Source: Flavobacteriales bacterium (GTDB lineage Bacteria > Bacteroidota > Bacteroidia > Flavobacteriales_F > PHOS-HE28). Taken from it: a stretch of 64,000 nt of DNA. A program made the position numbers and the translations under genes. The DNA lies in contig JANMKC010000010.1 of assembly GCA_031371785.1 (NCBI GenBank), positions 389 to 64,388 of the forward strand, given 5' to 3'. Within the stretch, counting starts at the first letter, position 1; each line of letters opens with the position of its first letter. The notes under the pieces were generated by a model, which did no database searches, was not told the origin of the DNA, and saw nothing but the letters and a program-made list of their open reading frames with translations. Below, one piece after another: positions 4,400 to 54,752 of this stretch.

Positions 4400-6493
4400 C
4401 TACCCCAATGGATCCGCACCAGGTCTCTTTTGACCGAGCACAGACCTCAACAACTGCGCATTGATCGCCACCACCACGGTGCTCATGCTCATCAGCACCG
4501 CCCCCATTGCGGGTCCCATCACGAAGCCCGAAGAGTAGAAGACACCGGCCGCCATGGGTATCGCGAACGCGTTGTAGCCTGTTGCCCACACAAGGTTCTG
4601 GATCATCTTGCGGTAGGTGGCCTTGCCGAAAAGGATCAGTTCGAGGATGTCGTTCGGGTCACTGTTCACGAGGATGATGTCGGCGGTCTCAGCGGCCACA
4701 TCGGTTCCTGAACCTATGGCGATGCCAACATCCGCTTGTGCGAGCGCGGGCGCATCGTTCACGCCATCGCCGGTCATCGCAACGAACTCGCCTTTCTGTT
4801 GCAACGCTTTCAACAGTTCCACTTTCTGGTGCGGAAGAACCTCTGCATGGAAGCCATCAAGACCCAACGCATCGCTCACGGATTTCGCCACAGCTGCATT
4901 GTCGCCCGTGGCCATGATCACCTTGATCCCCTCCTTGCGGAAGCGATCGATGGCGGCTTTCGCCGTGGGCCTGATCGCATCGGCCAGCGCGATGGAACCG
5001 ATCAGCGCATCGTTCCGCAACACATGGATCACGGTCTCGGCTGCGTCTGCGCTGGTCTTTCCGGGGATCGCGATGTTCTTCTCTTTCAAATAGCCGGGGC
5101 TCACCACCGCGATGCGCGCACCATCCACGATCGCCTGCACACCTTTCCCGGTGATCGCTTCGAAGCCTGTGATGGTAGCAAGTGCGATGTTATCAGCCTT
5201 GGCCTTCTTCATGATCCCGGTGGCGATGGGATGCTCGGAGCTTTGCTCAAGTGCTGCGGCCAACCGCAGCAGTTCCTTTTGATCAACACCTGATGCGTAT
5301 ACATCAACGCGTGTAACGCCGAAGTCGCCCATGGTGAGCGTGCCGGTCTTGTCGAAGAGGATGGTGGTGATCTTGCGCGCGTCCTCGAACGCGGTGCGGT
5401 TGCGGATAAGCAAGCCGCGTTGCGCGGCCATCGCGGTGGAGATCGCCACTACAAGCGGAACGGCGAGACCCAGCGCATGCGGGCACGAGATCACCAGCAC
5501 GGTGACCATGCGTTCCAGCGCGTACACCATCGGGAAACCGAGAAGCAGCCACACTGTGAACGTGATCGCTCCAGCGGAAAGCGCGATGTACGTGAGCCAC
5601 TTCGCCGCGCGATCAGCGAGGTTCTGCGTGTACGACCGCGACTTCTGCGCTTCCTGCACCAGCGTGATCACCTTCGTGAGGTAACTGTCCGAGCCTGCAT
5701 GCTGCACCTTCACTTTCAGTGAGCCGTTGCCGTTCACCGACCCGCCGATCACCGCATCGTTCACGGTCTTCGCCACTGGTTTCGATTCACCCGTGAGCAA
5801 GCTTTCGTTCACGTAACTCTCGCCTTCCACCACCACGCCATCGGCAGGAACTTTCTCGCCGGGCTTGATCACGATCACGTCGTGTACTTTCAGCGTGTCC
5901 AACTTCACGTCCATGACATGGTCGCCATGCACCATGTGCGCTTCGGCGGGCATCATGCTCACCAGCAGTTCCAGCGATCGCGACGCGCCGAGCACCGAAC
6001 GCATCTCGATCCAATGCCCCAGCAACATGATGTCGATCAGCGTGACCAGTTCCCAGAAAAAGTCTTCGCCTTTCAGTCCGAACACTACTGCACCGCTGTA
6101 CAGATAAGCCACCGTGATCGCCACGGCGATCAACGTCATCATGCCGGGCGATCGCTTGCGCAGTTCTTCCACCGAACCTTGCAGGAAGGGCCAACCAGCG
6201 AAGAAGTACGCGAAGGATGAAAGCGCGAAGAGCACATACATCGATCCCGTGAACGCGATGGAGAAGCCGAAGAACTTCTGCACCATCGGCGAGAGGGCCA
6301 ACACCGGCACGGTTACGATCAGCGCGATCCAGAAGCGCCGCTTCATATCGTCGATCATCATGCGGTGATGATCGTGGCCCATGGAGCCATGTTCGGGGTT
6401 GTCGTGCGACATATCGCCCATGGGGCCATGGTCATCATGACCCTGCTGAGGCGCAGCCCTAACAGGTGTCGGTGCGTTATGATGAAGTTCCAC
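4400..6493 (-). CDS. copB: Copper-translocating P1B-type ATPase, CopB-like (His-rich N-terminus, CPH motif)
   Basis: His-rich [64 protein letters not shown]. Confidence 0.9.
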
Positions 6494-25031: not shown

Positions 25032-25496
25032 TTACTTGTCGGTACCAAGTCGTGGCAGCTCGATCTCATCGGGCACCACGTAGAGGCCGGGGAACTCATC
25101 GCTGAGATCAGCGCGCAATTTGTCCGCAGGCAGCTTGCTGCGCAGGTCGCCCACACGAACACGGAAATTGGGCGCGAAGTAGCTCAGGTAGGCGGGCACG
25201 TTCGGATGGCGCCCCAAGAAAGAGCGACGGATCTCCTCGGCCTTGGTGCGATCGCCGAGGAAGAGCTGCACGCGGTAGCCTTTCAGCGGTTGCTTCTTCG
25301 ATGCGTACTCTTTCATCAACGACGAGATGCGGGCGCTCTCGTGTATCGTCACGTGGCCGGTGTCGCCGCTCACCGCGATGGGCTTCGATACCATTGGCGT
25401 GGTGACCGGTGCGGATGGCGTGAAGACGCGCGGGTCCGTTTGCGCGCGCAGTTGAACAGCGAGCGAGAGGGCTAGGAAGATGGGCAGATGATGCAT
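25032..25496 (-). CDS. SPOR-domain protein
   Basis: Start trimmed to MHHLPIFLALSLAVQLRAQ; C-terminal GYRVQLFLGDRTKAEEIRRSF...FRVRVGDLRSKLPADKL SPOR-like repeat. Confidence 0.65.
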   Translation of the reverse strand: MHHLPIFLALSLAVQLRAQTDPRVFTPSAPVTTPMVSKPIAVSGDTGHVTIHESARISSLMKEYASKKQPLKGYRVQLFLGDRTKAEEIRRSFLGRHPNVPAYLSYFAPNFRVRVGDLRSKLPADKLRADLSDEFPGLYVVPDEIELPRLGTDK

Positions 25497-25538
25497 CGGT
25501 GCGAAGGTATTGGTGGTGGTTGGTTGTCGGAGAAATGC

Positions 25539-25620
25539 AGTGGGCAGTAGCAGTAGGCAGCGGCAGTAGGCTGCGGAACGTGTGCGGTACATCTGCCTAC
25601 TGCTACTGCCGCTGCCCACT
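25539..25620. repeat. Low-complexity long hairpin (cagtag/ctactg units)
   Basis: gcagtagcagtaggcag (25544-25560) is the exact reverse complement of ctgcctactgctactgc (25593-25609); outer agtgggcag/ctgcccact also pair. Confidence 0.8.
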
Positions 25621-25758
25621 CTCGAACTCTTCTCCTGGACCGGAAAAAACCCAAGCCCGACACGGTTATCGACGGCATCCGAATTCTTAGAACGATTCTA
25701 AATAGATGACATGTGCGTGACATTTTTCGCTGCGACTTTCGTCGTATCGGTCGGCGGC

Positions 25759-25766
25759 TACTTTTG
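25759..25766 (+). promoter_or_regulatory. Candidate Bacteroidota -7 promoter box (TAnnTTTG) for the act operon
   Basis: tacttttg 43 nt upstream of actA ATG; AT-rich region with palindrome ttagaacgattctaa at 25687-25701. Confidence 0.4.
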
Positions 25767-25808
25767 CGCCGCGCCGATCGACCGTGATCCGCGCCCAAAT
25801 CGTCCGGA

Positions 25809-27131
25809 ATGCCGCTCCCACCAAGGATCCACAAGAGTTTCACCGGGCTCCTCCACACTACCCTCGCCTTCGCTTTACTGATCTCGACGACCCTCTTGCA
25901 CGCGCAAGCGGACAAGGCGATGTACGCCACAGGAGAGAAAACCTTCAAGGCGAACTGCGGCAGTTGCCACAAGCCGGACACCAAGCTCACCGGCCCGGCA
26001 CTGAAGGGCGCGAAGGCCAAGTGGGAAGGCAAGGGCAACATCCACGCGTGGATCAAGAACAGCCAGGCTGAACTGAAGACCGGCGACCCGATGGCGGTGG
26101 CCATTTGGGCGGAGTACAAGCCCACCATCATGACACCGAATGCGGTGTCGGACGCGGATATCGACGCCATCCTTTATTACGTCGACAACTATGTCCCGAA
26201 GGTCATCGTCAAGGGTCCAGAACCTCCGTTGCCTCCAGGTGGACGGCCCCAGGACGGCGCATGGCAGTGGCTCGTAATCGTGACACTGCTCCTCTTGGTG
26301 GTGGTGCTCTCCCTTGGAGGAGTGAAGCACCAGCTGCGGAACGCGTTGCGCGAGCGCGAAGGCCAGGAGCCGCTGCCCGAGCGCAGCATCTGGGGCAACA
26401 TCAAGCATTGGGCGTGGACGCACAAAGCATGGGCATCCGTAGCGGGTCTGCTCATTTTCGTCTGGCTTTTCCTGCAAGCATGGGATTGGGCCTACCACAT
26501 AGGAGTGTATGGCGGCGATGAAGTGGCACATTACAAACCCGAACAACCGATCAAGTTCAACCACACGCTGCACGCGGGCAAAATGGCGATCAACTGCCAG
26601 TACTGCCACAGCAGCGCGGAGAAGAGCAAGCACGCCGGCATCCCCAGCGCGAACGTGTGCATGAACTGCCACAAAGCGATCGATCAAGGACCCACTACGG
26701 GCAAGGACGAGATCGCCAAGATCTATGCGGCGGTGGGCTGGGATCCGGAGAAGAAAGTGTACACCGGCAAGGAGAACCCGATCAAGTGGGTGAAGGTGCA
26801 TGTGCTGCCTGACCATGTGGCCTTCAACCATTCTGTTCACGTCGCCGTGGGGAAGATCGAATGCCAGAAATGCCATGGCCCGGTGGACACCAAGATGGAC
26901 GTCGCTGAGCAATGGAGCCCGCTCACCATGGGCTGGTGCATCCAGTGCCACAACGAGACCGAAGTGCCACAGATGGCCGCCGGTGCCGCACCCAATGGCT
27001 ACTACCAGGAGATCCACCGGCGACTCACCGAGACACCGATGGGCAACAAGGAACTGCAGAAATATTTGGAGGACGAGAAGATCACAGTGAGGGAGCTAGG
27101 CGGTTGGGAATGCGCCAAGTGCCACCAATAA
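25809..27131 (+). CDS. actA: Alternative complex III subunit ActA, multihaem cytochrome c with N-terminal monohaem cytochrome c domain
   Basis: Six CxxCH motifs (CGSCH, CQYCH, CMNCH, CQKCH, CIQCH, CAKCH); first gene of actABCDEF order. Confidence 0.85.
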   Translation: MPLPPRIHKSFTGLLHTTLAFALLISTTLLHAQADKAMYATGEKTFKANCGSCHKPDTKLTGPALKGAKAKWEGKGNIHAWIKNSQAELKTGDPMAVAIWAEYKPTIMTPNAVSDADIDAILYYVDNYVPKVIVKGPEPPLPPGGRPQDGAWQWLVIVTLLLLVVVLSLGGVKHQLRNALREREGQEPLPERSIWGNIKHWAWTHKAWASVAGLLIFVWLFLQAWDWAYHIGVYGGDEVAHYKPEQPIKFNHTLHAGKMAINCQYCHSSAEKSKHAGIPSANVCMNCHKAIDQGPTTGKDEIAKIYAAVGWDPEKKVYTGKENPIKWVKVHVLPDHVAFNHSVHVAVGKIECQKCHGPVDTKMDVAEQWSPLTMGWCIQCHNETEVPQMAAGAAPNGYYQEIHRRLTETPMGNKELQKYLEDEKITVRELGGWECAKCHQ

Positions 27132-27147
27132 GAACACGCGCGGAACG

Positions 27148-30100
27148 ATGTCGACCACCAAACAATACTGGCAGGACCTGGGCGAGCTGACCGATGCGCC
27201 GCAGGTCCCCACGAACGAGTTCAATACGCCCCTGCCCCTCGCGGAAGCGCTTTCCAACACGGGCCTTACGGGTGCCACTACCGGCCGCCGTGATTTCCTG
27301 AAGTTCCTCGGCTTCTCCCTCAGCGCCGCCACGCTCGCCGCCTGCGAAACGCCGGTGATCAAGAGCATTCCCTATGTGAACAAGCCGGAGGAGATCACTC
27401 CCGGCGTTGCGAACTGGTATGCGAGCACCTACTACGACGGTGAGGATTTCGGCAGTGTGCTGGTGAAGACCCGCGAAGGCCGTCCCATCCACATCAAGGG
27501 CAACACACGCTTCGGGATCAACAGGAACCCGGACACCAAGAAAGGGTCGATCAACGCGCGCATCAACAGCAGCGTGATCACACTCTATGATAACGAGCGC
27601 GTGCAAGGCCCGGTGATGAACGAGGGCGAAAAAGGATGGAGCACTACCACGTGGGCCGCTGCTGACAAGGCCATTGGAGCGAATCTCGCGAAGATCAGTG
27701 CCAGTGGAAAGCGCATCGTGCTGTTGACCAATACGGTGATCAGCCCCAGCGCGAAGCAGGCGATCGACCTGTTCAAGAACAAGATCGGCGGAACGGCGCT
27801 GGCGCAGGGAAGTGATGATGGATTGAGCGTGCAAGTGGGTTCCAAAGTGGACCACGTGCAATACGACACCATCAGCTACGCGGGCATCACGAACGCCAAC
27901 CAGAAGAGCTTCGGCAAGCGTGTGTTCCCGAGCTATGACCTCACCAAGGCCGACGTGCTCGTAGGTATTGGCGCGGATTTCCTGAGCACCTGGGGCAGCA
28001 CCACGGAGAACACCTGGCAATATGCCGTACGTCGTCGTCCGGAAGATGCGACCGCCGAGAAACCGATGAGCCGCCACTGGCAGTTCGAAGCATTGATGAG
28101 CCTGACCGGTGCGAACGCGGATCAGCGTGCGGCCGTGAAGCCGAGCCAGGTCCCCGCCGTGGTGATGGGCCTGCACGATGCCATCGCGAAGAAGATCGGC
28201 GGTGCGACGGCAGGTGCAGCATCCATCGATGCGCACACCGATGAAGCCATCGCCGTATGCGCTGCCGAACTCATGGCCGCGAAAGGCAAGAGCCTGGTCG
28301 TATGCGGCTTCAATGAAGAAGGCACGCAAGTGCTGGTGAACAGCATCAACATGATGCTGGGCAATTATGGAAGCACGATCGATCTGGCGAACCACACGTA
28401 CTTCAAGCAAGGCGATGACGCTGCGGTGCAGCAACTGGTGAAGGATATGAACGCGGGTGCCGTCGGTGCGATCCTGATCGTGGGTGTGAATCCCGCCTAC
28501 AGCTTGCCCAATGCGGCCGAGTTCGCCGCAGGCCTGAAGAAAGTGGACCTGAGCGTGAGCTTCAGCGGCTACAGCGATGAGACCGCGAGCCTGTGCAGCA
28601 GCATACTCCCTGACCACCATTGGCTCGAAAGCTGGAACGACTTCATGCCGAAGCCGGGCCGTTACGCGCTCGCGCAGCCGACGATCACGCCGCTCTTCAG
28701 CACGCGCCAATGGCCGGAGACCCTGCTGAAGTGGAGCGGCAACGACAGCAACTGGCACGACTACATACAAGGGGTGTGGCAAGCCAACATGGCCGCGCAC
28801 GCTGAAACTCCCGGATCCTTCATCGAGGCGTGGGACATGAGCGTCCACAACGGCGTGTTCGATGCGTACACCAATGCTGCGGAGCCCGCCGTGTTCGCAG
28901 GCAACATCACAGAAGCCGCGGCCAATGCGAAGAAGAGCGTGGCAGGTGCCGCTACGGGCGATGGCTCTTACGAGGTGCAGCTCTATACCAAGGAATCCAT
29001 CGGCAGCGGCTTGCACGCCAACAACCCGTGGTTGCAGGAAATGCCCGATCCGCTCACCAAGTGTACGTGGGACAACTATGTGTGCATGGCCCCAGCGGAC
29101 TTGATGCGCATCACGGGCAAGAAGGACATCAAGTCGCTTTCCATCGGGCAGGACGAACCCGCGCATGTGGTGAAGGTGTCGGTGAACGGCACCGAACTGG
29201 AACTGCCGGTGATCCCGGCCCCAGGTCAAACTCCCGGAACGATCAGCGTTGCGCTCGGCTATGGCCGCGGTGCGAAAGGCGAACGCGTAGGCCGCGCCGC
29301 GTGCTTGCGCAATGACGACGGTTCACCCGCACCCATCGGGCAGAACGCCTATCCGTGGACCAACGTGATCAATGGTGCGGTGAGCTATGCGGCGATGAGC
29401 GGCAAGGTGGAGGGCACATCGAAAACCTATCCGCTCGGCCTCACGCAAACGCAGCTCACCGGCATGGACCGTGAGAGCATCATCAAGGAAACAACGTTCG
29501 CGGTGTGGGCGAAGCACGAGCCCAAGGAGTCCTACAACGAGATCGAGATGATCACGGTGCATGAGGACGTGAACCACGATGGCCAGATCGACGCGCAGGA
29601 CAAAGTGCCCGCTTCCGAAGTGAACCTGTGGAAGGACCATGCGGTGGCCGAAGTGGGCCACCACTGGGGCATGACGATCGACCTGAACAGTTGCATCGGC
29701 TGCGGGGCGTGCATCACAGCGTGCAACAGCGAGAACAACATTCCGGTGGTGGGCAAGGATGAAGTGCGCCGCAGCCGCGAGATGCACTGGATGCGGATCG
29801 ATCGCTACTACAGCAGCGACATGACGCACGCCAAAGGCAGGGCAGAGGGCATGGGCAAGATCGAGCGCTACCTCTTGATGGAGGAGCCATCGGCCCAACC
29901 GCGCGTGTTCTTCATGCCGGTGATGTGCCAGCACTGCAACCACGCTCCCTGCGAAACGGTGTGCCCGGTGGCCGCCACCACGCACAGCCTCGAAGGCCTC
30001 AACATGATGGCCTACAACCGGTGCATCGGCACGCGTTACTGCGCGAACAATTGCCCGTACAAAGTGCGCCGCTTCAATTGGTTCAACTACGTCACGGAGA

Positions 30101-30489
30101 AATTCGGCCAGGTGAATCCCGCGTGGGACGAGCTCGGTCGCATGGTGCTGAACCCCGACGTGACGGTGCGCAGCCGTGGGGTGATCGAGAAGTGCAGCCT
30201 CTGCGTGCAGCAGATCCAAGGCGGCAAGATCGCGGCGAAGAAGGCCGGCACGCCAGTGATGGACGGCGCGATCGAGACCGCATGCAGCGCCGGATGCCCC
30301 ACGAACGCTATCACCTTCGGCGACCTGAACGACAGCAAGAGCAAGGCCCTGGCGCTGAGCCAGGACGAACGTGCCTACCACATGCTCGAAGAGATCGGCG
30401 TGAAACCGAACGTCAGTTACCTGGCCCGGGTGCGCAACCGCGAAGAAGAGCCGGAGGTAGCCGAAACAACCGAAGAAGCCCACCACTAG
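27148..30489 (+). CDS. actB: Alternative complex III subunit ActB (Tat-signal molybdopterin-oxidoreductase-like plus 4Fe-4S domain)
   Basis: Tat motif GRRDFLKFLG; C-terminal ferredoxin Cys clusters CIGCGACITAC, CQHCNHAPCETVCP, CIGTRYCANNCP. Confidence 0.9.
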   Translation: MSTTKQYWQDLGELTDAPQVPTNEFNTPLPLAEALSNTGLTGATTGRRDFLKFLGFSLSAATLAACETPVIKSIPYVNKPEEITPGVANWYASTYYDGEDFGSVLVKTREGRPIHIKGNTRFGINRNPDTKKGSINARINSSVITLYDNERVQGPVMNEGEKGWSTTTWAAADKAIGANLAKISASGKRIVLLTNTVISPSAKQAIDLFKNKIGGTALAQGSDDGLSVQVGSKVDHVQYDTISYAGITNANQKSFGKRVFPSYDLTKADVLVGIGADFLSTWGSTTENTWQYAVRRRPEDATAEKPMSRHWQFEALMSLTGANADQRAAVKPSQVPAVVMGLHDAIAKKIGGATAGAASIDAHTDEAIAVCAAELMAAKGKSLVVCGFNEEGTQVLVNSINMMLGNYGSTIDLANHTYFKQGDDAAVQQLVKDMNAGAVGAILIVGVNPAYSLPNAAEFAAGLKKVDLSVSFSGYSDETASLCSSILPDHHWLESWNDFMPKPGRYALAQPTITPLFSTRQWPETLLKWSGNDSNWHDYIQGVWQANMAAHAETPGSFIEAWDMSVHNGVFDAYTNAAEPAVFAGNITEAAANAKKSVAGAATGDGSYEVQLYTKESIGSGLHANNPWLQEMPDPLTKCTWDNYVCMAPADLMRITGKKDIKSLSIGQDEPAHVVKVSVNGTELELPVIPAPGQTPGTISVALGYGRGAKGERVGRAACLRNDDGSPAPIGQNAYPWTNVINGAVSYAAMSGKVEGTSKTYPLGLTQTQLTGMDRESIIKETTFAVWAKHEPKESYNEIEMITVHEDVNHDGQIDAQDKVPASEVNLWKDHAVAEVGHHWGMTIDLNSCIGCGACITACNSENNIPVVGKDEVRRSREMHWMRIDRYYSSDMTHAKGRAEGMGKIERYLLMEEPSAQPRVFFMPVMCQHCNHAPCETVCPVAATTHSLEGLNMMAYNRCIGTRYCANNCPYKVRRFNWFNYVTEKFGQVNPAWDELGRMVLNPDVTVRSRGVIEKCSLCVQQIQGGKIAAKKAGTPVMDGAIETACSAGCPTNAITFGDLNDSKSKALALSQDERAYHMLEEIGVKPNVSYLARVRNREEEPEVAETTEEAHH

Positions 30490-30493
30490 GACC

Positions 30494-31885
30494 ATGCACA
30501 GCGAATCATCGCTCCGCGAGCCGCTCATCCTGGGCCACCGCACGTACCACGACATCACCAACGACCTGGTGAAGCCGATCGAGGACAAAGCGTCCCGTGC
30601 GTGGTACGTGCTCATCACCATCGCGGCGCTCATCGCCGCGTACGGCATCGGCTGCATCATGTACCTCTTCAGCAAGGGCATCGGGGTGTGGGGCTTGAAC
30701 AAGACCGTTGACTGGGCATGGGACATCACCAACTTCGTTTGGTGGGTCGGTATCGGCCACGCCGGCACGCTCATCAGCGCGGTGCTCCTGCTCTTCCGCC
30801 AGAAGTGGCGCATGGCGGTGAACCGCAGCGCCGAGGCGATGACCATTTTCGCCGTGATCATGGCCGCCACTTTCCCCATGATCCACATGGGCCGCATCTG
30901 GATGGCCTCCTGGGTGTTCCCGTTGCCCAACCAGTTCGGTTCGCTGTGGGTAAACTTCAACAGTCCGCTGCTCTGGGACGTGTTCGCGATCAGCACATAC
31001 TTCTCGGTAAGTGTGGTGTTCTGGTACATCGGCCTGATCCCCGACTTCGCCACCATACGCGACAAAGTGGTGAAGCCTTGGCAGAAGAAATTCTATGGGA
31101 TCCTCAGCTTCGGTTGGACCGGCAACGCCAAAGCATGGACCCGCTTCGAGGAAGTGAGCTTGGTGCTGGCGGGTCTCAGCACGCCACTGGTATTCTCCGT
31201 TCACTCCGTGGTAAGTATGGACTTCGCCACCTCGGTGGTTCCGGGTTGGCATACGACGATCTTCCCGCCCTACTTCGTGAGCGGTGCGGTGTTCAGCGGA
31301 TTCGCCATGGTGCAAACACTGTTGCTGGTGATGCGCAAGACGATGAGACTTGAAGCGTACGTGACGATCAAGCACATCGAGTACATGAACATCATCATCA
31401 TCGTTACCGGGTCGATCGTGGGCGTTGCCTACATCACCGAGTTGTTCATCAGCTGGTACGGTGGTGTGGAATACGAGAGCTACGCGTTCATCAACCGCGC
31501 GACGGGTCCTTACTGGTGGGCGTACTGGGCGATGATGACCTGCAACGTGATCAGTCCGCAGCTCTTCTGGGTGCGCAGCTGGCGCCGCAACCTGGTCTTC
31601 ACCTTCTTCATGAGCCTGGTGGTGAACACGGGCATGTGGTTCGAGCGCTTCGTGATCATCGTTACCAGTTTGCACCGCGACTACCTTCCGAGCAGCTGGA
31701 CGATGTTCCACCCAACTTGGGTGGACGTGGGGATCTTCCTCGGCACCATCGGCATCTTCTTCACCCTTTACCTGCTCTTCGCCCGTTTCTTCCCCGTGCT
31801 GGCGTTGAACGAGTTGAAGTCGATCCTGAAGAACAGTGGCGAGAGCTACAAGAAGAACGGCCATTCCAACCTTCCTCATCATTGA
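30494..31885 (+). CDS. actC: Alternative complex III subunit ActC (NrfD/PsrC-family quinol-interacting membrane subunit)
   Basis: Polytopic membrane protein, WDITNFVWWVGIGHAGTLISA, position after actB. Confidence 0.85.
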   Translation: MHSESSLREPLILGHRTYHDITNDLVKPIEDKASRAWYVLITIAALIAAYGIGCIMYLFSKGIGVWGLNKTVDWAWDITNFVWWVGIGHAGTLISAVLLLFRQKWRMAVNRSAEAMTIFAVIMAATFPMIHMGRIWMASWVFPLPNQFGSLWVNFNSPLLWDVFAISTYFSVSVVFWYIGLIPDFATIRDKVVKPWQKKFYGILSFGWTGNAKAWTRFEEVSLVLAGLSTPLVFSVHSVVSMDFATSVVPGWHTTIFPPYFVSGAVFSGFAMVQTLLLVMRKTMRLEAYVTIKHIEYMNIIIIVTGSIVGVAYITELFISWYGGVEYESYAFINRATGPYWWAYWAMMTCNVISPQLFWVRSWRRNLVFTFFMSLVVNTGMWFERFVIIVTSLHRDYLPSSWTMFHPTWVDVGIFLGTIGIFFTLYLLFARFFPVLALNELKSILKNSGESYKKNGHSNLPHH

Positions 31886-45639: not shown

Positions 45640-47970
45640 TCACCGCTGGATCTCGACCTGATCGGTGTTCCAAGCGGAACGCGCGGGTAGCCTCAACACC
45701 ATGGGCGCTCTTGACTTGACAAGCGGTCTGGGGGTCATACGCCGCTCGGTCTTTCGTCGGCTACGCTCCATGATCGATCGTGCCATCAGGTAGCACACCG
45801 TGCTTTCGGCCCCTTGGTTCAGGTTCACACTGTGCTCTTCCAACCCATCGTAGCAGCCGCCGGACGCGTTGTTGTACATCACTTGCGCCAAGTGGTTGCG
45901 GCCGAGGAACCATTCGAAGGCGATGTTCATTTTGCGATGATATTCCTCTTCTGCGAAGACTTCATGGAAGAGCGCCAGCGCGGAAACAGTGTATGCTGCA
46001 TCGATGGGCTGTTCGCCGAACGGATGCGGTTCCACGCCCGGTTCCAGCCATGTGCGGTTGGAGATGATGCGCAGCATATCCTCCTTGAACATGCAGCTCA
46101 GGAGGAAGCCGAACGCGGTGCGTGCCGTATCGCGGAAGGCAATGCGCTTGGTTTCCAAAAAGGCGAGCAACAAGGCTTCAGGCAATACCGCGTTGCCGTA
46201 TGTGAGAATGGGTTCGAACCATCCCCATTCCGTTGTGGCCGTGCTGCGGTAGCAGTTCAACAGGCGCTGCCCCAACCGGTCCACCAGATCCGTAATGTGC
46301 TGGCTCGACCTCACCGAGTTGTACGCGTGAAGGCCCTTGATGGCGAAGCTCACCGCTCGGGGTGACGTGAGATCCGCCACCCACGGCAGGCTGGCCCACA
46401 GCGCATGCTCCGCTTTGCGCGACATCTCAGCCGATAGAACATGCTCGTGGGCAACACATACACCCAATGCCCATACCGCGCGGCCATTGCTGTCGTCCAG
46501 GTTCTCCCGCTCGTTCTGCCGAGTGAACCCGCCGTGCTGGTCCGTGTAGTTCAGGAAATGCCCGTTCTCCTGTTGGCAACGAAGGATGTAGTCGAGGTAG
46601 CGTAACATCAACAACGTGTCCATCCCGGCTCCGCCTTCATTGTCGGCATGCATGCACCCGGCGATAAGCGCACGGGCATTGTCGTCCACTGTGTGCCCCG
46701 AAGCGAGATCGGGTTCGCTGATGTCGCAGAACTGCACCATGCCGATGGGAGTGGTGAGCCGCGCCATGTGACGCAAGGAGACCACAGGCCATTTGAACCG
46801 GAGGTGAGCGGTACCCTTTGCCCGTTCCGCGAAGGAACGCGCGTGCGCGATGGCGACATTTTCCCATGCGCTCGCGCGCATGCGGTGCAGGGCATTGCGG
46901 CCCATGCGGTCCATGCGTTCGGGATCCATCAGGAGATCGATCGCCGCTTCTGCCAGTTGTTGTGGGCTCTTGAAGTCGATCAACACGCCCGTTCCATCAT
47001 CGAGCACTTCCGCCGCGTGCGGAATGCGCGTGGAGATGACCGGACAGCCACAGCCCATGGCGTACGCGAAGGTGCCGCTCACCGCTTGCTCCGGGTCCTT
47101 GGAGGTGAACAGGTAAACGTCCGTGAGCTGCAAGTATTCCAACAGTTCGCCGAGTTCCAAGTAGCGGTCCACGAACCGCACATGGTCCTTCAATCCGAGT
47201 TCCTCCACCTTGCGCTCCAACATGTTGCGGTACGCTTCACCCTCCTGACGTACCACTTCAGGATGCGTCCGTCCGAGCACCAGGTACAGGACATTCGGCG
47301 AATGTTCCTTGATGGTCACCAACGCATCAAGCGCGGTCTCGATGCTCTTGTTGGAACTGAGCAGGCCGAAGGTGGAAAGCACTTGGCGGTCCTGCAGCCC
47401 GTACTTCTCTTTCATCAGCTGTTTGTCCTTCCACTTCACTGTATGCGTTCCGTGCGGCATCACGGTGATCTTGTCGGCGCTGATGCGATAGTCCTCGCGC
47501 AGGATGCGCGCGGAACGTTCGGTGAGCACGATGACGCCGATCGCCATGTCTGCGAGGGAACGGATCATCTCCAAGCGTTCTTGTTGTGGTGCCGGTAGTA
47601 CCGTGTGGAATGTGATGGTGACCGGTTTGTGGATCATTTGAAGGAACCGCAACAAATACTGTCCATGTCCTCCGGTGTACAGGCCGAACTCATGTTGCAC
47701 CCATACGCTTTGGATGTGCGGATCATGGTCCACCTCAAAGGCCAAGCGATCGTGATCGTCCGGATCGGATGTGTTCAGCGTGTGGGTTACCTCTTGTGGA
47801 TAGTTCCGCAGGACCGCGGGATCCTCCAAGGCGCAGATCGCATAGCGCAATGGTGCGCTGAACGTGCGGTTCAATGCGGACACCAGGTCCTGCGTGTAGG
47901 TGGCGATACCGCATACGCGCGGAGGATAGGAAGTGAGGACCAGGACCTGGTCCCGGGAAGTGCTCATCAT
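45640..47970 (-). CDS. GT4-family glycosyltransferase fused to a C-terminal alpha/alpha-toroid-like domain
   Basis: N-terminal half is GT-B/GT4-like (VLTSYPPRVCGIATY, EQAVSGTFAYAMGCGCPVISTRIPHAAEVL); roughly 380-aa helical C-terminal half. Confidence 0.7.
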   Translation of the reverse strand: MMSTSRDQVLVLTSYPPRVCGIATYTQDLVSALNRTFSAPLRYAICALEDPAVLRNYPQEVTHTLNTSDPDDHDRLAFEVDHDPHIQSVWVQHEFGLYTGGHGQYLLRFLQMIHKPVTITFHTVLPAPQQERLEMIRSLADMAIGVIVLTERSARILREDYRISADKITVMPHGTHTVKWKDKQLMKEKYGLQDRQVLSTFGLLSSNKSIETALDALVTIKEHSPNVLYLVLGRTHPEVVRQEGEAYRNMLERKVEELGLKDHVRFVDRYLELGELLEYLQLTDVYLFTSKDPEQAVSGTFAYAMGCGCPVISTRIPHAAEVLDDGTGVLIDFKSPQQLAEAAIDLLMDPERMDRMGRNALHRMRASAWENVAIAHARSFAERAKGTAHLRFKWPVVSLRHMARLTTPIGMVQFCDISEPDLASGHTVDDNARALIAGCMHADNEGGAGMDTLLMLRYLDYILRCQQENGHFLNYTDQHGGFTRQNERENLDDSNGRAVWALGVCVAHEHVLSAEMSRKAEHALWASLPWVADLTSPRAVSFAIKGLHAYNSVRSSQHITDLVDRLGQRLLNCYRSTATTEWGWFEPILTYGNAVLPEALLLAFLETKRIAFRDTARTAFGFLLSCMFKEDMLRIISNRTWLEPGVEPHPFGEQPIDAAYTVSALALFHEVFAEEEYHRKMNIAFEWFLGRNHLAQVMYNNASGGCYDGLEEHSVNLNQGAESTVCYLMARSIMERSRRKTERRMTPRPLVKSRAPMVLRLPARSAWNTDQVEIQR

Positions 47971-49040
47971 GATGCGTTCTTTTTCAATTGTTCCAACAGC
48001 GCGGACAGCTTCACGGAAGCAACCGCCACACGTTCATCCGCCGCACCGTAATAGATGTAGAGGTCATCATCGAACACAGCAGTGCCGGAGGGGAAGACGA
48101 TGTTCTTCACGTAGCCTTCCTTCTCCCAGGATTCCTGCGGCGAGATCAACGGCTTCTTCAACCGGCCGATCACCTTCCGTGGATCATGGGGATCGAGCAG
48201 CGCAGCACACGCGTGGTATACGAAGCCGTGGGGCGTGTCCTCAGCCGAATGATATATGATGAGCCAGCCATCGTCCGTCTCGATCGGTGGCGCCCCCCCA
48301 CCGATGTGGCTGGACTCATGCGGCAGCAATGGATCCATGACGATGTGTTGTTCGAGGTCCATGAGATACTTCTCCCAGAACCCCTTGTCCAATTCCTTCG
48401 GGTCGTCGAAGAACACGATCTGGATACCGGGGTGTATGCGGTGCAGCATCGCGAACCGGCCCTTGATCTTCCGTGGGAAGAACATGATGTTCTTGTCCCA
48501 CAGCAAGAGCTTGTCAGCCATGTCCTCTCCCAGACCATGCTCCTTCAACATCTTGTAGTGGAAGAGGTATTTCTGGTTCAGACCAGGGCAGCAGTCGATG
48601 AGCTTCTTGAACTCACGATAGGTGAACTGCGGCGTGATCACCGGATGCTTCGTGAAGGTCTGCAGGTCCTTCGACGTGGCATACGCGCCAAGCGCGTTCA
48701 TGCGGTCGTACACGGTGTACGTGAGGTAATAGGTGTCATCGATCTTCACGATGCGCGGGTCCTCGATGCCCTGCGACTCGTACGGGTGCTCGGGGATCAT
48801 CAGCGGCTTGTCCGCCCGCATGGCTACTTCCCGTGGTCCGTTCAAAATGCAATGACCAACAGCGGAATAGTTACCATGGCGTACAGCGCGGTAGAACATG
48901 TGTACATCACCACCCACGCGGATGCACGCGGGGTTGAGCGCACCGGCGTTCTCGAATCCGAGGTCGCTTTTGTCCAGAACCACTCCGTGGCGCACCACTT
49001 CCAGTTCCATTTGCGTGTGTGTCATAGTTCCGCTGATCAT
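47967..49040 (-). CDS. GH130-family glycoside phosphorylase/hydrolase-like protein
   Basis: NPACIRVGGDVHMFYRAV, GIEDPRIVKIDDTYYLTYT, WDKNIMFFPRKI, DDLYIYYGAADERVAVASV; ATGA overlap with downstream GT4 gene. Confidence 0.75.
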   Translation of the reverse strand: MISGTMTHTQMELEVVRHGVVLDKSDLGFENAGALNPACIRVGGDVHMFYRAVRHGNYSAVGHCILNGPREVAMRADKPLMIPEHPYESQGIEDPRIVKIDDTYYLTYTVYDRMNALGAYATSKDLQTFTKHPVITPQFTYREFKKLIDCCPGLNQKYLFHYKMLKEHGLGEDMADKLLLWDKNIMFFPRKIKGRFAMLHRIHPGIQIVFFDDPKELDKGFWEKYLMDLEQHIVMDPLLPHESSHIGGGAPPIETDDGWLIIYHSAEDTPHGFVYHACAALLDPHDPRKVIGRLKKPLISPQESWEKEGYVKNIVFPSGTAVFDDDLYIYYGAADERVAVASVKLSALLEQLKKNAS

Positions 49041-49049
49041 CTTGTCGGG

Positions 49050-49241
49050 TTATCGGGTATGCTGCATTACAACTACGGGTTCACGCTTGCCGGTCTTGCC
49101 CAAATCGTGGCCTTCGTATTCATCCAGCTGGCCGACACCGCTTTTCGGTGTGCCCTGCCCGCTCTTTTTGCCGTCGCCCTTCTTGTCTTGCTTGACATCG
49201 TGAGCTTTGGTCGTGCTCACTTTCTCATCGCGCTTTGTCAT
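49050..49241 (-). CDS. Small Lys-rich hydrophilic protein (63 aa), hypothetical
   Basis: Ends 9 nt before the GH130 start, same strand; GC-rich third positions; no homology recognised. Confidence 0.35.
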   Translation of the reverse strand: MTKRDEKVSTTKAHDVKQDKKGDGKKSGQGTPKSGVGQLDEYEGHDLGKTGKREPVVVMQHTR

Positions 49242-49574: not shown

Positions 49575-49717
49575 TCAGCCTTCGAGCGTCCGCTTCACCT
49601 CCACCATCTCGAACGCTTCCACGTTGTCACCCACCTTGATGTCGTTGAAGTTCTTGATGCTGAGGCCACACTCATAGCCATGCGTCACCTCCTTCGCATC
49701 GTCCTTGAAGCGCTTGA
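49575..49717 (-). pseudogene. Detached copy of the infB 3' end (last 46 codons plus stop)
   Basis: Encodes [46 protein letters not shown], against ...RTLDG* in infB; 128 of 131 core nt identical to 50753-50883. Confidence 0.85.
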
Positions 49718-49765
49718 ACCAACGCGAGGGTCTTCGGCGTTATCCGGAAGCCATTGCGGATCGGC

Positions 49766-49773
49766 TACTTTTG
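49766..49773 (+). promoter_or_regulatory. TAnnTTTG-type box immediately upstream of the first cassette gene
   Basis: cggctacttttg, same 12-mer core as upstream of actA; only 4 nt before ATG 49778. Confidence 0.3.
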
Positions 49774-49777
49774 TTCC

Positions 49778-50227
49778 ATGCTTCTTTGCGAGTACTCTTC
49801 GGGGGGGTTGTTGGACCTTCTCGCGAAGTTCGCGCCCATCGGAACGGCCTTCGGCGTGGTGGTGGCCGGTCTCACCTATTGGTGGAACGTACGGCAGAAA
49901 CGTTCCGAACTGATGCTGAAGCTCTACGAGAAATTCTACGAAGGGACCTTGCACAAGGACATGCGACGCAGGATCGACTACCGGACCTTGGAGAACGATC
50001 TGGCCGCCGATCCGTTACTGGAAGAGAAACTGGTGGACTACCTGAACTTCTTCGAGTTCATGGCCTCGATGTGGTCGCTTGGCCAACTGAAGGCGGTGGA
50101 GATCGAGAAGCTCTTCGCCTATTACCTGGACCTGATCGCTTCCTCGGAATACCTGTCCGGCTATCTGCGGAAGAACGGGTTCGAGGACATGGAACGCTAT
50201 ATGGCCCAGCGTGGGCAAAAAGGATGA
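49778..50227 (+). CDS. Hypothetical N-terminally membrane-anchored helical protein (DUF4760-like architecture, unverified)
   Basis: ATG 49778 (ORF track starts at TTG 49754); TM FAPIGTAFGVVVAGLTYWW followed by a helical domain of about 110 aa. Confidence 0.55.
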   Translation: MLLCEYSSGGLLDLLAKFAPIGTAFGVVVAGLTYWWNVRQKRSELMLKLYEKFYEGTLHKDMRRRIDYRTLENDLAADPLLEEKLVDYLNFFEFMASMWSLGQLKAVEIEKLFAYYLDLIASSEYLSGYLRKNGFEDMERYMAQRGQKG

Positions 50228-50703
50228 CAAGGAACGTTGACCATTTGTTCGTCTACGGCACGTTGCGGCCCGGATCATCGGCGCATGCGCGCCGCATCCT
50301 CAAGAGCAGTGCGGAGCATGTCGGCAAGGGCGAAGTGCGCTCGGCCCGTATGTTCGATCTGGGCGAATATCCCGGTGCCGTGCGGACCCGGAGCAAGCGC
50401 GAGTTCATCATCGGCGATGTCTTCCGCATCAATAAGAGCAAACTGTCCGAAGTGATGGAGGCCTTGGATGCCTATGAGGAGTTCGACCCCAGCGACCCCA
50501 AGGGCTCGCTCTATGTGCGCAAGATCACCAATGTGAAGGTGGAGGATACGGATCTGAAGGCGTGGATCTATTGGTTCAATCGCCCGGTGGAACAGGCGGT
50601 ACCGATCGAGGAAGGAGATTACAGCCGCGTGGCCGTGCGCTATGCGACAAGCCGCAACGCGCGCGTTTCCCTGCCGCGCCGTTCGAAGGCACGGGTCGTT
50701 TAG
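50224..50703 (+). CDS. Gamma-glutamylcyclotransferase-like (GGCT/AIG2-like) protein
   Basis: ATGA overlap with upstream gene; N-terminal LFVYGTLRPG motif, GEYPGAV, VFRI...LDAYEEF...YVRK layout typical of the AIG2/GGACT fold. Confidence 0.6.
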   Translation: MTRNVDHLFVYGTLRPGSSAHARRILKSSAEHVGKGEVRSARMFDLGEYPGAVRTRSKREFIIGDVFRINKSKLSEVMEALDAYEEFDPSDPKGSLYVRKITNVKVEDTDLKAWIYWFNRPVEQAVPIEEGDYSRVAVRYATSRNARVSLPRRSKARVV

Positions 50704-50740
50704 TGCTGCTGTTCCGGCGCGCGATGAGCGCTTGTGCGAC

Positions 50741-53404
50741 CTATCCGTCCAACGTCCGCTTCACCTCCACCATCTCGAACGCTTCCACGTTGTCACCCAC
50801 CTTGATGTCGTTGAAGTTCTTGATGCTGAGTCCGCACTCATAGCCATGCGTCACTTCCTTCGCATCGTCCTTGAAGCGCTTGAGGTCGCTGAGGTCGCCG
50901 GTATAGATCACGATGCCGTCGCGGATCAAACGCACCTTGGCGTTGCGCGCGATCTTGCCGTCGAGCACGTAGCAGCCTGCCACGGTGCCCACCTTGGATA
51001 TCTTGAAGGTGTTGCGCACTTCCGCCGTGCCCATGATCTTCTCCTCCTCCTTCGGCGCGAGCATGCCTTCCATGGCCTGCTTCAGCTCCTCGATGGCGTT
51101 GTAGATGATCGAATACAGGCGGATCTCGATCTCCTCGCTTTCCGCCAGCTTGCGCGCACCCACCGTAGGGCGCACCTGGAAGCCGACGATGATAGCGTTG
51201 GAGGCCGATGCGAGCAGCACGTCACTTTCGGCGATGGGGCCCACGGCCTTGTGGATCACGTTCACCTTGATGTTCTCGGTGCTCAGTTTGAGCAGTGAAT
51301 CGGTGAGCGCTTCCACGGAACCGTCCACGTCGCCTTTCACGATCACATTGAGCTCCTTGAAATCGCCGATCGCCAAGCGGCGGCCGATCTCGTCGAGGGT
51401 GATGTGCTTGCGCGTGCGCATGCCCTGCTCGCGCTGAAGTTGCTGGCGACGCGTGGCGATCTGGCGCGCTTCGCGATCGTCCTCCATCACATGGAAGTGA
51501 TCGCCCGCGTTGGGCGCACCGTCCAGACCGAGGATCGATATCGGCGTTGATGGGCCCGCTTCCGTAACAGCTTGGCCGCGTTCGTTGAACATGTTCCGCA
51601 CGCGGCCGCTGTACTGGCCCACGAGCAGTACCTCGCCCTTGTGCAGGGTGCCCGCCTCCACCAGCAGGGTGGTCACGTAACCGCGACCCACTTCCAATGT
51701 GCTCTCGATCACCACGCCCATGGCGCGTTTGCCAGGGTCGGCCTTCAGGTCCAACAGATCAGCTTCGAGAAGCACCTTCTCCAGGAGCTGGTCCACCCCG
51801 GTGCCCTTCTTCGCACTGATCTCCTGCGTCTGGTATTTGCCGCCCCACTCCTCCACCAGGATGTTCATCTGGCTGAGCTGATCGCGGATCTTCTCCGCGT
51901 TGGCGTTGGGCTTGTCGATCTTGTTGAAGGCGAAGACCATGGGTACGCCGGCGGCTTGCGCATGGTTTATCGCTTCGCGCGTCTGCGGCATCACGCTGTC
52001 GTCCGATGCGATCACGATGATGGCGATGTCCGTGACCTGCGCGCCGCGTGCACGCATGGCGGTAAAGGCTTCGTGGCCCGGCGTATCGAGGAAGGCGATG
52101 CGCTTGCCGTTCTCCAGTTCAACACTGTACGCGCCGATGTGCTGGGTGATGCCTCCGGCCTCGCCCGCGATCACGTTCGCTTTGCGGATGTGGTCGAGCA
52201 GGGAGGTTTTGCCATGGTCCACGTGGCCCATGACCGTGACGATGGGCGCGCGATGCACAACGCGCGTCGGATCGTCCACCTCCTCCATCACGTTCTCCTC
52301 GTTGTCCGCACCGACGAACTCCACGGTGAAGCCATACTCTTCCGCGATCACCGCGAGCGTTTCCGCATCGAGGCGCTGATTGATGCTCACCATCATGCCC
52401 AACGCGAAACAGGCCTTGATGATGTCCGTTACCGGCACGCTCATCATGGAGGCCAGTTCGCTCGCCGTCACGAATTCGGTCACCTTCAAGGTCTTGCCAG
52501 CGAGATCGCGGGCGGCCTGTTCCTCCTCGAAGCGTTGGAAGCGTTGATCCCGTTTCTCGCGGCGTACTTTCTGGCCACGGCCTTTACCGCCTCCAGTGAG
52601 GCGGGCGAGCGTTTCGCTCACCTTGCGCTTCACCGCGTTCTCGTCCAACTCGCCGGGACGACCGGTGGAAGGTGGGGTGCGCTGCTCTTGCTGAACGGTG
52701 CGCTCCACGTTCACCGGGCCGGGCTTCACGATGCGCTTGCGGCGACCACGATCGTTGTCTCCGGGGCGTTCGCTCGGCTTGCGTTCCCGCTCAACGGGCA
52801 GCTCGATCTTGCCCAGGCTTTTCACTCCTGTGAGCTTCGCCACGTTCACGCGGATGGTCTCCGGCTCGGCGACAGGCTCAGGCGCACGGGCAGGGGCAAT
52901 AGCGGCCGGGGCAGAAGCAGGGACAGGAGCAGTGGCTTCCGGCTCTGCCTTGGCGGTCTTTTTCGCGGTTTTCTTGGGTGGGTCCAGATCGATCTTGCCC
53001 AGGGTCTTCGGGCCTTCGACCTTGTCGGCCTTGGCCTTGATCACTTCATCCGGTGGCTTCGCGACAGGAGGGACAGCTTGTGTTTCTGGGGCAGGCGCAG
53101 GGGCAAGCGCAGGGGCAGGGACGGGAGGTGCCTTGCGCGGTGCCTCTTTCGAAACGCTGTGCATGATCACGCTCTCACGCTCCTGGCGCGCTTGCACGGT
53201 CTGCTTGCTCGCTTCCTTCTCCGCTTTGTCGGTTCCGAATTGCCCTAGCAGCAACTCATACTCCGCTCCGCTGATCTTGGCGTTGGGGTTCTGCTCCACG
53301 GAGTAGCCCTTGGAGGCCAGGAATTCCACCACGGTGTGCAACCCTTGGTTGAACTCGCGAGCCACCTTGCTCAATCGCACTGTCTTGTCCGCCGTTTCGC
53401 TCAT
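50741..53404 (-). CDS. infB: Translation initiation factor IF-2
   Basis: [25 protein letters not shown] GTPase motifs; disordered Ala/Pro/Lys-rich N-terminal region. Confidence 0.95.
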
Positions 53405-53513: not shown

Positions 53514-54752
53514 TTACTTGTCCAATTCCATCTTCAGGATCCTCAATACCTCCGTAACCGTTTCCTCTTCCAGGTCCGTGCGCTTCACCAGTTCCTCTGC
53601 GCCGATCTCCACCACACTGCGTGCGGTATCACAACCGATGCCTTTCAGCTCGTCGATGATCCAGTGGTCGATCTCGTCGGCGAATTCCTCCAGGTCCACG
53701 TCATCGGTCACTTCGTCGCTGTCGCGATACACGTCGATGTCGTAGCCGGTGAGCCTTCCGGCGAGCTTGATGTTGTGGCCGCCCTTGCCGATGGCCAACG
53801 CCACCTGGTCAGGCTTCATGTACACCTCGGCGCGCTTGTTCTCCACGTCCAGTTTGATGTTGCCGATCTTGGCGGGGCTCAGTGCGCGCTGGATCAGCAG
53901 TTGGTCGTTGGCCGTGTAGTTGATCACGTCGATGTTCTCGTTCCTGAGCTCGCGAACGATGCCGTGGATGCGTGAGCCTTTCATGCCCACGCACGCGCCC
54001 ACTGGATCGATGCGATCATCATAGCTCTCCACGGCGACCTTGGCGCGCTCGCCCGGTTCACGCACGATGCGCTTGATGGTGATGAGGCCGTCGGCCACTT
54101 CGGGTACTTCCTGCTCGAACAGCTTCTCGAGGAACTCCGGCGCGGTGCGGCTCAGGATCACGCGCGGACTGTTGTTGTACATCTCCACCTTCCACACCAC
54201 GGCGCGCACGTTGTCGCCTTTCTTGAAGAAGTCCGTCTTGATCTGCTGGTCCTTGGGCATGATCAGCTCATTGCCCTCATCGTCCAGGATCAATGTTTCG
54301 CGTTTCCAGATCTGGTACACCTCACCGGTGATGATCTCGCCGACGCGCTCCTTGTATTTGTTGTAGAGGTGGTCCTTCTCCAGTTCCATGATGCGGCCTT
54401 GGAGGTTCTGCTTGATGGAAAGGATATTGCGCCGCAGGAAATCGTTGATCTTCAGTTCTTGGCTCACCTCCTCGCCTACTTCGAAGTCAGGTTCGATCTT
54501 GCGCGCCTCGGCCAGTTCGATCTCCAGCGCGTCGTCCTCGCTCATGCCGTCCTCCACGATCACGCGGTTCAGCCAGATCTCCAGATCACCCTTGTCGGGG
54601 TTGATGATGACGTCCACGTTGGCTTCTTCGCCGTACTTCTTTTTCACGACGCCTTTGAACACGTCTTCCAGGATGCCCATCATGGTCACCCGGTCAATGT
54701 TCTTCATGTCCTTGAACTCGGAGAAGGACTCAATAAGGTTCACGGTGCTCAT
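53514..54752 (-). CDS. nusA: Transcription termination/antitermination factor NusA
   Basis: S1 and KH regions (GACVGMKGSRIHGIVRELRNENIDVI); rimP-nusA-infB order. Confidence 0.93.
   Translation of the reverse strand: MSTVNLIESFSEFKDMKNIDRVTMMGILEDVFKGVVKKKYGEEANVDVIINPDKGDLEIWLNRVIVEDGMSEDDALEIELAEARKIEPDFEVGEEVSQELKINDFLRRNILSIKQNLQGRIMELEKDHLYNKYKERVGEIITGEVYQIWKRETLILDDEGNELIMPKDQQIKTDFFKKGDNVRAVVWKVEMYNNSPRVILSRTAPEFLEKLFEQEVPEVADGLITIKRIVREPGERAKVAVESYDDRIDPVGACVGMKGSRIHGIVRELRNENIDVINYTANDQLLIQRALSPAKIGNIKLDVENKRAEVYMKPDQVALAIGKGGHNIKLAGRLTGYDIDVYRDSDEVTDDVDLEEFADEIDHWIIDELKGIGCDTARSVVEIGAEELVKRTDLEEETVTEVLRILKMELDK

Follow-up and report, generated by a model that had tools for sequence, protein, structure and literature searches.

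What do two small overlapping genes do that form the whole content of a 1-kb insertion beside infB in a Flavobacteriales bacterium? The genes lie in a 64,000-nt stretch of contig JANMKC010000010.1 (assembly GCA_031371785.1), which we refer to as the window, and a sequence-only reading had taken them for a possible defense or toxin/immunity module. Gene 1 encodes a membrane protein with a DUF4760-like helical domain and gene 2 encodes a GGACT/AIG2-like protein. To our knowledge, GGACT/AIG2-like proteins are common in bacteria and almost none has a known substrate, and we know of no function assigned to DUF4760. Our analysis favors a metabolic enzyme tethered to the membrane over a phage-defense or toxin system. 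Specifically, we propose that the two proteins are the subunits of a gamma-glutamyl(amine) cyclotransferase anchored to the membrane on its cytoplasmic side, a proposal that we regard as an even call. The two genes are the following.

49778-50227, forward strand: gene 1, 149 aa from its ATG, a single-pass membrane protein with a DUF4760-like helical domain
50224-50703, forward strand: gene 2, 159 aa, GGACT/AIG2-like, with a gamma-glutamylamine cyclotransferase fold

These coordinates agree with the two-gene cassette described earlier, in which a shared ATGA provides both the stop codon of gene 1 and the start codon of gene 2. An alternative start of gene 1 at an upstream TTG (49754) would give a protein of 157 aa.

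A profile-guided scan of the GTDB species representatives yielded 57 loci, and 54 of them had readable downstream DNA. In 54/54, the gene 1 homolog was directly followed by a GGACT gene on the same strand, and the same adjacency was seen in the metagenome loci L001-L011 and L080. The pair was found in at least seven phyla. According to the record titles, its hosts include Bacteroidota (Chitinophagaceae, Sphingobacteriales, and Flavobacteriales), Planctomycetota, Acidobacteriota, and Pseudomonadota, and further Nitrospira, Gemmatimonadales, candidate division FCPU426, and a metagenome-assembled genome (MAG) of the PVC group. Among 60 dereplicated loci, the two genes overlap by 4 nt in 27 and by 1 nt in 5, and in most of the others the gap or overlap is at most about 25 nt. 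At least 11 natural fusions carry both parts on a single polypeptide (L028, L054, and 9 of the 9 long proteins from the HMMER search that were tested). In the fusions the GGACT domain is C-terminal to the helical domain, and only about 8-20 linker residues precede the FVYGTL strand. The GGACT protein has no signal peptide. The pairwise distances of gene 1 and gene 2 are correlated (r = 0.87, reached by 0 of 2000 Mantel permutations), and the mean distances for the two genes (0.61 and 0.62) indicate the same evolutionary rate. Both genes are under purifying selection, with a median dN/dS of 0.10 (gene 1) and 0.13 (gene 2). These data support a translationally coupled unit that recurs across genomes. 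The sequence-only reading had reckoned with the possibility that the two genes do not co-occur elsewhere, and their co-occurrence in every readable locus decisively removes that doubt.

The same reading had stated that no characterized counterpart of the pair was known, and this still holds: the literature that we searched links GGACT neither to DUF4760 nor to phage defense. Searches on DUF4760, on GGCT combined with anti-phage activity, and on AIG2-like proteins in bacteria found nothing relevant, and DUF4760 appeared only in a gene table. The GGACT enzyme superfamily is already known; the obligate DUF4760-like membrane partner, which is sometimes fused to the enzyme, is new.

Gene 2 matched the Pfam family GGACT (PF06094) with 80.3 bits (cut-off 22.8, E = 2.2e-22) over profile positions 1-119 of 120. 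Its AlphaFold2 model had a pLDDT of 90.6, and the best Foldseek matches were PH0828 (1v30), YtfP (1xhs), YkqA (2qik), mouse/human GGACT (1vkb, 3jub), and GGCT (3cry), all with a probability of 1.00. The match to the Pfam ChaC family reached an E-value of only 0.17, PHROGs returned only a generic phage GGCT family, and an NCBIfam scan of gene 1 and gene 2 gave nothing. The YGTLRPG signature noticed earlier is present as FVYGTLRPG, and the Pfam match, the fold, and the motif all confirm the GGCT/AIG2-like layout. Gene 2 has the Y11-G12-T13-L14 loop, Asp65 at the position of the catalytic acid, an LDAYEE motif, and a basic C-terminal tail. The Y-G-T-L substrate-binding loop belongs to the active-site residue list of GGACT (PMC2954230) and is invariant in 60/60 members of the paired family, in which the YGTL loop, YPG, LDxYE, an Arg, and WxY are 90-100% conserved. 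On one point the earlier expectation was mistaken. A catalytic Glu had been anticipated, and gene 2 instead has Asp65 (GDVF), aligned with the Glu of GEVY in YtfP. Across the paired family this position is Glu in 26 members, Asp in 27, and Thr, Asn, Arg, or Gln in 6, so that an acid is kept in 53/59 (about 90%).

Mammalian GGACT/A2LD1 (3JUB, 3JUC, 1VKB; PF06094) is the closest characterized relative of gene 2. The two share the fold (Foldseek probability 1.00, TM-score about 0.6), the Y-G-T-L loop, and an acid on the equivalent strand. However, mammalian GGACT is a soluble, stand-alone enzyme with the catalytic Glu82, while gene 2 has Asp65, is only 21-22% identical, and has a basic C-terminal tail and an obligate partner gene for a membrane anchor. 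The closest solved relatives, YtfP of Escherichia coli (1XHS), YkqA of Bacillus subtilis (2QIK), and PH0828 of Pyrococcus horikoshii (1V30), are likewise functionally uncharacterized, and their solved chains have no DUF4760-like domain. YtfP is the closest of them in sequence (E = 1.5e-6). BtrG-type enzymes of antibiotic biosynthesis and the glutathione-degrading ChaC/GGCT enzymes belong to the same superfamily and share the proposed chemistry, the release of 5-oxoproline from a gamma-glutamyl amide. The pair differs from them in that its surroundings are housekeeping genes and contain no biosynthetic gene cluster.

Among the Flavobacteriales-type relatives, the GGACT protein has an additional DUF2188 domain at its C terminus and is about 215 aa long in total (L010 2321-2968; L011; L015 5446-6084; L023 5976-6569; L007 703-1269; P0013; P0014), while gene 2 has a short basic tail instead. 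We considered whether gene 2 is a truncated GGACT-DUF2188 fusion and rejected this, as no DUF2188 remnant lies past its stop codon.

Gene 1 had been described as one N-terminal transmembrane (TM) helix followed by an all-helical domain, and both hydropathy and structure prediction bear this out. It has a single hydrophobic segment, LLAKFAPIGTAFGVVVAGL (mean Kyte-Doolittle 1.78), with no Lys or Arg before it and three after it. The TM helix covers approximately residues 13-37, and an N-out/C-in orientation is predicted from the basic C-terminal flank. One N-terminal hydrophobic segment was present in 53/53 family members tested; their mean number of Lys plus Arg was 3.4 in the C-terminal flank and 0.6 in the N-terminal flank, with the C-terminal flank richer in 51 of the 53. 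The AlphaFold2 model of gene 1 is all-helical (pLDDT 84.7), with a long helix at residues 8-55 and then a helical bundle. Against DUF4760 (PF15956), gene 1 scored 19.2 bits with a cut-off of 25, and the alignment spans the N-terminal two-thirds of the model. The gathering threshold was passed by its relatives P0265, P0267, P0302, P0315, and P0348 (26-32 bits), which include fused and unfused proteins, and precomputed DUF4760 matches are present for P0003-P0008. Since these relatives pass the threshold though gene 1 itself scores below it, gene 1 is best described, from its sequence, as a member of a divergent DUF4760 subfamily. Profile searches, which had been proposed as a check, upheld the GGACT assignment of gene 2 and a DUF4760-like assignment of gene 1.

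An exhaustive HMMER search found 844 cluster representatives of the gene 1 family at E ≤ 1e-3. Its invariant motifs include EExLVDYLNFFEF, EEKLVDYLNFFEF, and GFE. The first of these motifs and the obligate pairing with GGACT set the subfamily apart within DUF4760, and we found neither described in the literature searched. When the gene 1 model was compared with the PDB by Foldseek, there were zero matches at E ≤ 1e-3. Among the viral models of BFVD, one unnamed phage protein (A0A3G8F6F1) shares the fold of gene 1 (TM-score 0.78), and PHROGs gave a weak match to a family of unknown function only.

In the cyclotransferase that we propose, gene 1 would be a single-pass inner-membrane anchor with its DUF4760-like helical domain towards the cytoplasm. 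Gene 2 would be the catalytic subunit of GGACT fold, made in a fixed ratio through translational coupling and docked on the helical domain, which may also shape or gate the GGACT pocket. The free alpha-amino group of the gamma-glutamyl moiety would attack the gamma-amide, releasing 5-oxoproline and the free amine. The substrate might be a gamma-glutamyl-amine or an isopeptide, for example gamma-glutamyl-epsilon-lysine that remains when peptides are degraded, a polyamine with a gamma-glutamyl group, or a lipid head group that bears an amine. We infer the physical complex, the chemistry, and, purely so, the class of substrate. Several points weigh against this proposal. The residue at the catalytic position in gene 2 and in half of the paired family is Asp and not the canonical Glu, with a side chain one carbon shorter, and the 6 of 59 members with Thr, Asn, Arg, or Gln could not use the canonical mechanism. 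A GGACT homolog of about 40% identity (L081, a Terriglobales contig) is unpaired, and its upstream neighbor is a different, secreted protein; because such unpaired homologs exist, the GGACT fold does not need the partner. The association is thus one-directional: gene 1 homologs are always with GGACT, and not all GGACT proteins are with gene 1. As no solved structure in the PDB is related to the DUF4760-like domain, the role of this domain as an anchor or regulator is assumed from its position. Finally, the association with peptidase genes described below is weak and partly non-independent, as related Acidobacteriota loci supply several of the cases.

Around the pair in about 40 distinct loci, we surveyed 150 open reading frames (ORFs) at distances of up to 3 kb. 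According to Pfam, they encode Sdh subunits, LUD, FtsH, TatC, peptidases, and thioredoxin-reductase-like proteins, among others, and also MetRS, QueA, and PurF. In Chitinophagaceae, the pair is embedded between sdhA and sdhB, in the order sdhC(b558), sdhA, pair, and sdhB on one strand. This arrangement was seen in about 19 species, of which Pollutibacter soli JS81, Puia dinghuensis, and Puia sp. P3 are in culture (L022 3168-7651; L042 3212-6785; L061 3235-7581; also L035-L039, L044-L050, L055, L056, L062, L065, and L067). The pair is separated from sdhA by 0-77 nt and from sdhB by 4-15 nt, and each of the three Sdh proteins scores above its NCBIfam cut-off. In Pirellulaceae the pair lies between rmlD-like and queA genes, and in Acidobacteriota it adjoins tatC or M16 peptidase genes. 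Other sites are between purF and 6PGD, after ftsH-LUD (Flavitalea-like), and beside ispDF. The alphaproteobacterial loci were also examined for a position between sdhA and sdhB, and there the pair sits between metG and a short-chain dehydrogenase/reductase gene instead.

Genes for M16 (insulinase-type) peptidases occur within 0.5-5 kb of the pair in seven Acidobacteriota loci (L021, L025, L032, L043, L052, L057, and L068), and in other phyla peptidases of the S41/tricorn type (L023), S9, and M28 are found near it. These neighbors are a weak hint of a link to peptide catabolism. The role of mammalian GGACT is the clean-up of gamma-glutamyl isopeptides after proteolysis, and the M16, tricorn-type S41, S9, and M28 neighbors would weakly hint at a similar task. 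In the Sphingobacteriales locus L017, we also noticed a 37-nt intergenic motif, AAATAGTATCTTT..GAAAGCCCAAACC, in five copies (137-173, 3310-3346, 3843-3879, 5720-5756, and 5944-5980), two of them a short way upstream of the pair. The motif may function as a promoter or as a regulatory repeat.

The insertion in the window is laid out as follows.

49575-49717, reverse strand: copy A of the infB 3' end, a detached fragment with the last 47 codons and its own TGA stop codon (49575-49577), one arm of a direct repeat
49718-49777, forward strand: junction and upstream region of gene 1, 60 nt, including TACTTTTG at 49766-49773, which matches the Bacteroidota -7 box TAnnTTTG
50704-50740, no strand: 37-nt spacer between the convergent stop codons of gene 2 and infB
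50741-50883, reverse strand: copy B of the infB 3' end, the end of the intact infB and the other arm of the direct repeat
50741-53404, reverse strand: intact infB, on which gene 1 and gene 2 converge
53514-54752, reverse strand: nusA, which infB follows

The -7 box ends 4 nt before the ATG of gene 1, and its motif occurs only five times in the window on both strands. TACYTTTG precedes gene 1 at a short distance in each of the four Flavobacteriales-type loci (window 49766-49773; L010 1827-1834; L015 4957-4964; L023 5531-5538) and in 0/17 of the sdh-embedded loci examined. Because the box is rare in the window and shared upstream of gene 1 in Flavobacteriales-type loci, the cargo carries its own putative promoter in Flavobacteriales. 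Such a short distance to the ATG could mean that the mRNA is leaderless or that a downstream TTG (49808 or 49811) is the start codon. Rfam, promoter, and terminator scans over 48.5-51.5 kb of the window found nothing meaningful.

That the pair is inserted DNA beside a housekeeping gene, as had been suspected, is borne out by the repeated infB terminus around it. The direct repeat is 139 nt long with 96% identity (49579-49717 and 50745-50883, spacing 1166). It brackets a 1,027-bp segment with only gene 1 and gene 2, and both arms encode the last 47 codons of IF-2 and a stop codon. In an independent Logan assembly of run SRR20217216, a 1,095-bp contig carries the identical cargo and breaks off within the repeats. 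The GC content of the cargo is like that of the surrounding DNA. The arms (49575-49718 and 50741-50884) differ in eight codons, six of which are synonymous or keep the stop, and one of which is a Glu/Asp change (P about 1e-3 versus random change); the last four codons are far more diverged than the preceding 131 nt. Because the differences are nearly all synonymous, the arms look like two functional infB alleles joined by recombination and not like a duplication that decayed in place, as judged by the codon comparison. No integrase or recombinase gene was found within or next to the 1-kb segment. The cargo may have arrived with a surrogate infB end, either through site-specific integration and a later loss of the recombinase or through recombination between this genome and a related one.

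The best IF-2 matches of the window's uncultured bacterium are 88% identical. Neither its two closest relatives nor a metagenome scan for the infB terminus provided a same-species empty site or a second copy. In their last four codons the two arms each resemble a different one of these two relatives, and either arm may be the native one. In both relatives (L070 and L071), infB is followed by a convergent gene for a 156-aa secreted protein, cytochromes c, and an alternative complex III cluster. The window counterparts of these genes are at 25032-30975, inverted and about 24.5 kb away. Besides receiving the insertion, the 3' end of infB therefore marks a breakpoint of a rearrangement that spans about 24.5 kb. 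At the opposite breakpoint, neither a repeat nor a third infB fragment was found.

CIME-like elements are remnants of integrative elements that insert at gene 3' ends; they are flanked by att sites and lack an integrase. The window insertion resembles them in that a repeat of the target 3' end flanks the cargo, that the gene-joined arm restores a complete frame, and that the arms are like two functional alleles. It differs from them in having no recombinase in or next to the 1-kb segment, a long repeat of 139 nt, and no empty site or second copy found in related genomes. In the other loci no repeat flanks the pair, except for an unrelated one in L023 (a Flavobacteriales MAG). There, the 3' end of a glycosyltransferase gene occurs twice as a 130-nt direct repeat (1108-1237 and 5256-5385; 82% identity). 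The repeat flanks a block with a tricorn-type protease gene that ends 175 nt upstream of the pair, and is a second case of a gene-3'-end repeat bounding inserted DNA. On the far side of copy A in the window, a lysine-rich small ORF of 63 aa (49050-49241, reverse strand) lies between the detached infB fragment and a GH130-like gene (47967-49040), and the 333 nt between this ORF and copy A contain no convincing ORF, terminator, or Rfam match.

How far do these observations permit other explanations of the pair? That the two genes are unrelated neighbors by chance is refuted by the adjacency in 54/54 loci, the fusions, the co-evolution, and the coupling, and we give this idea practically no credence. 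It is improbable, to a lesser extent, that the subunit with the GGACT fold is, in some or all cases, no cyclotransferase and serves as a ligand-binding or scaffolding module on the membrane protein. The catalytic position is Asp in half of the family and Thr, Asn, Arg, or Gln in 6/59, and the Foldseek matches of gene 2 include structures of the non-catalytic crTP part 2 domain (9i09 and 9i08). This transit-peptide domain of Paulinella is known as a non-enzymatic use of the GGCT fold (bioRxiv 10.1101/2025.01.15.633182). Nevertheless, an acid is kept in nine-tenths of the members, and the high conservation of YGTL, YPG, LDxYE, the Arg, and WxY is a conserved active-site pattern. A tie to a neighboring membrane machine is very improbable in our view. 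The machine would chiefly be respiratory complex II (succinate dehydrogenase), with the pair as an assembly or accessory factor. The one-strand arrangement within sdhCAB in about 19 Chitinophagaceae species, including cultured isolates, and the absence of a separate -7 box in the sdh loci (0/17) would fit such a role. However, the sdh link is confined to one family, and elsewhere the pair is beside infB, metG, queA, tatC, purF, ftsH/LUD, or ispDF. In Flavobacteriales it has its own promoter box, and a single ancestral insertion into the operon explains the sdh pattern.

The view that the pair is a small toxin-antitoxin, abortive-infection, or anti-phage module goes back to the sequence-only reading, which saw a resemblance to sensor/effector or toxin/immunity modules of defense islets and offered a role in defense as pure inference. 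The membrane protein would then sense an envelope or phage perturbation or neutralize the enzyme, and GGACT would destroy an essential gamma-glutamyl metabolite. The pair is compact and translationally coupled with a small upstream partner, as in type II toxin-antitoxin modules, and like these it consists of two small overlapping genes scattered among housekeeping genes. It is patchy across phyla with insertion sites that differ between lineages, and in the window it is a repeat-flanked insertion. A HicA/HicB-like pair is inserted directly after the module in L006 (1688-2133), a KAP-family NTPase gene (L054 6953-9148) adjoins a fused gene, and phages encode GGCT-family morons (phrog_2520). When the 150 neighboring ORFs were searched with PADLOC, there were single strong matches to PifA, AbiD, and PDC-S03. 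The PifA match probably comes from the KAP NTPase of L054; the strong AbiD match is not tied to a particular locus. Most of the remaining matches were to AAA/ABC ATPase models (IetA, TRIP13, QatA, and AriA), which we read as cross-matches to FtsH and ABC proteins without a check of each protein. Credible defense neighbors amount to about 3-5 of the 150 ORFs in otherwise housekeeping surroundings, and a recurrent location near defense genes, for which a check had been suggested, was not seen. Neither gene 1 nor gene 2 matched any family of PADLOC-DB 2.0 at E ≤ 1. Gene 1 had no relative in 72,556 plasmids or 50,697 phage genomes by tblastn, and a profile scan of the IMG/VR viral contigs found none. 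Unlike type II toxin-antitoxin modules, the pair has no known toxin or antitoxin family and no DNA-binding domain, is absent from plasmids and phages, and shows long vertical inheritance and frequent fusion. It is fixed in sdhCAB of about 19 Chitinophagaceae species with dN/dS of about 0.1. Fusions, of which there are at least 11, would be unexpected for an antagonistic toxin and antidote, and argue for cooperating subunits. A toxin-antidote or a fast-turnover defense module would hardly be expected to persist by long-term vertical inheritance within a core respiratory operon and to undergo fusion. The defense reading is thus not supported, and we consider it rather unlikely. Separately, a tRNA-Leu gene followed by a tyrosine integrase gene lies 60 nt downstream of the pair in L017 (6924-8366), which is a hint towards mobility or defense. 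It is unlikely, though somewhat less so, that the pair is an unrecognized membrane-associated system with a dedicated physiological role. Such a system might cleave gamma-glutamyl groups off an amine close to the membrane (on a lipid head group, in a polyamine, or on a lysine of a protein), acting as a complex II accessory in Chitinophagaceae. Alternatively, it might be a conditional effector that destroys a gamma-glutamyl metabolite upon envelope perturbation, as a defense or stress module. If either version is true, a role would be assigned to a DUF4760 domain for the first time.

The analysis removes from consideration a defense-system candidate that looked plausible and was unsupported. 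The window also provides a clean case in which 1 kb of DNA without a recombinase gene is inserted at the 3' terminus of an essential gene, with flanking repeats that resemble two functional alleles. For the tethered cyclotransferase that we favor, the cultured Pollutibacter soli and Puia strains with the pair in sdhCAB are a defined experimental system. One DUF4760 subfamily, with 844 cluster representatives and at least seven phyla, is thus the obligate partner of a GGACT enzyme and would anchor it to the membrane, which provides a concrete hypothesis for both families.

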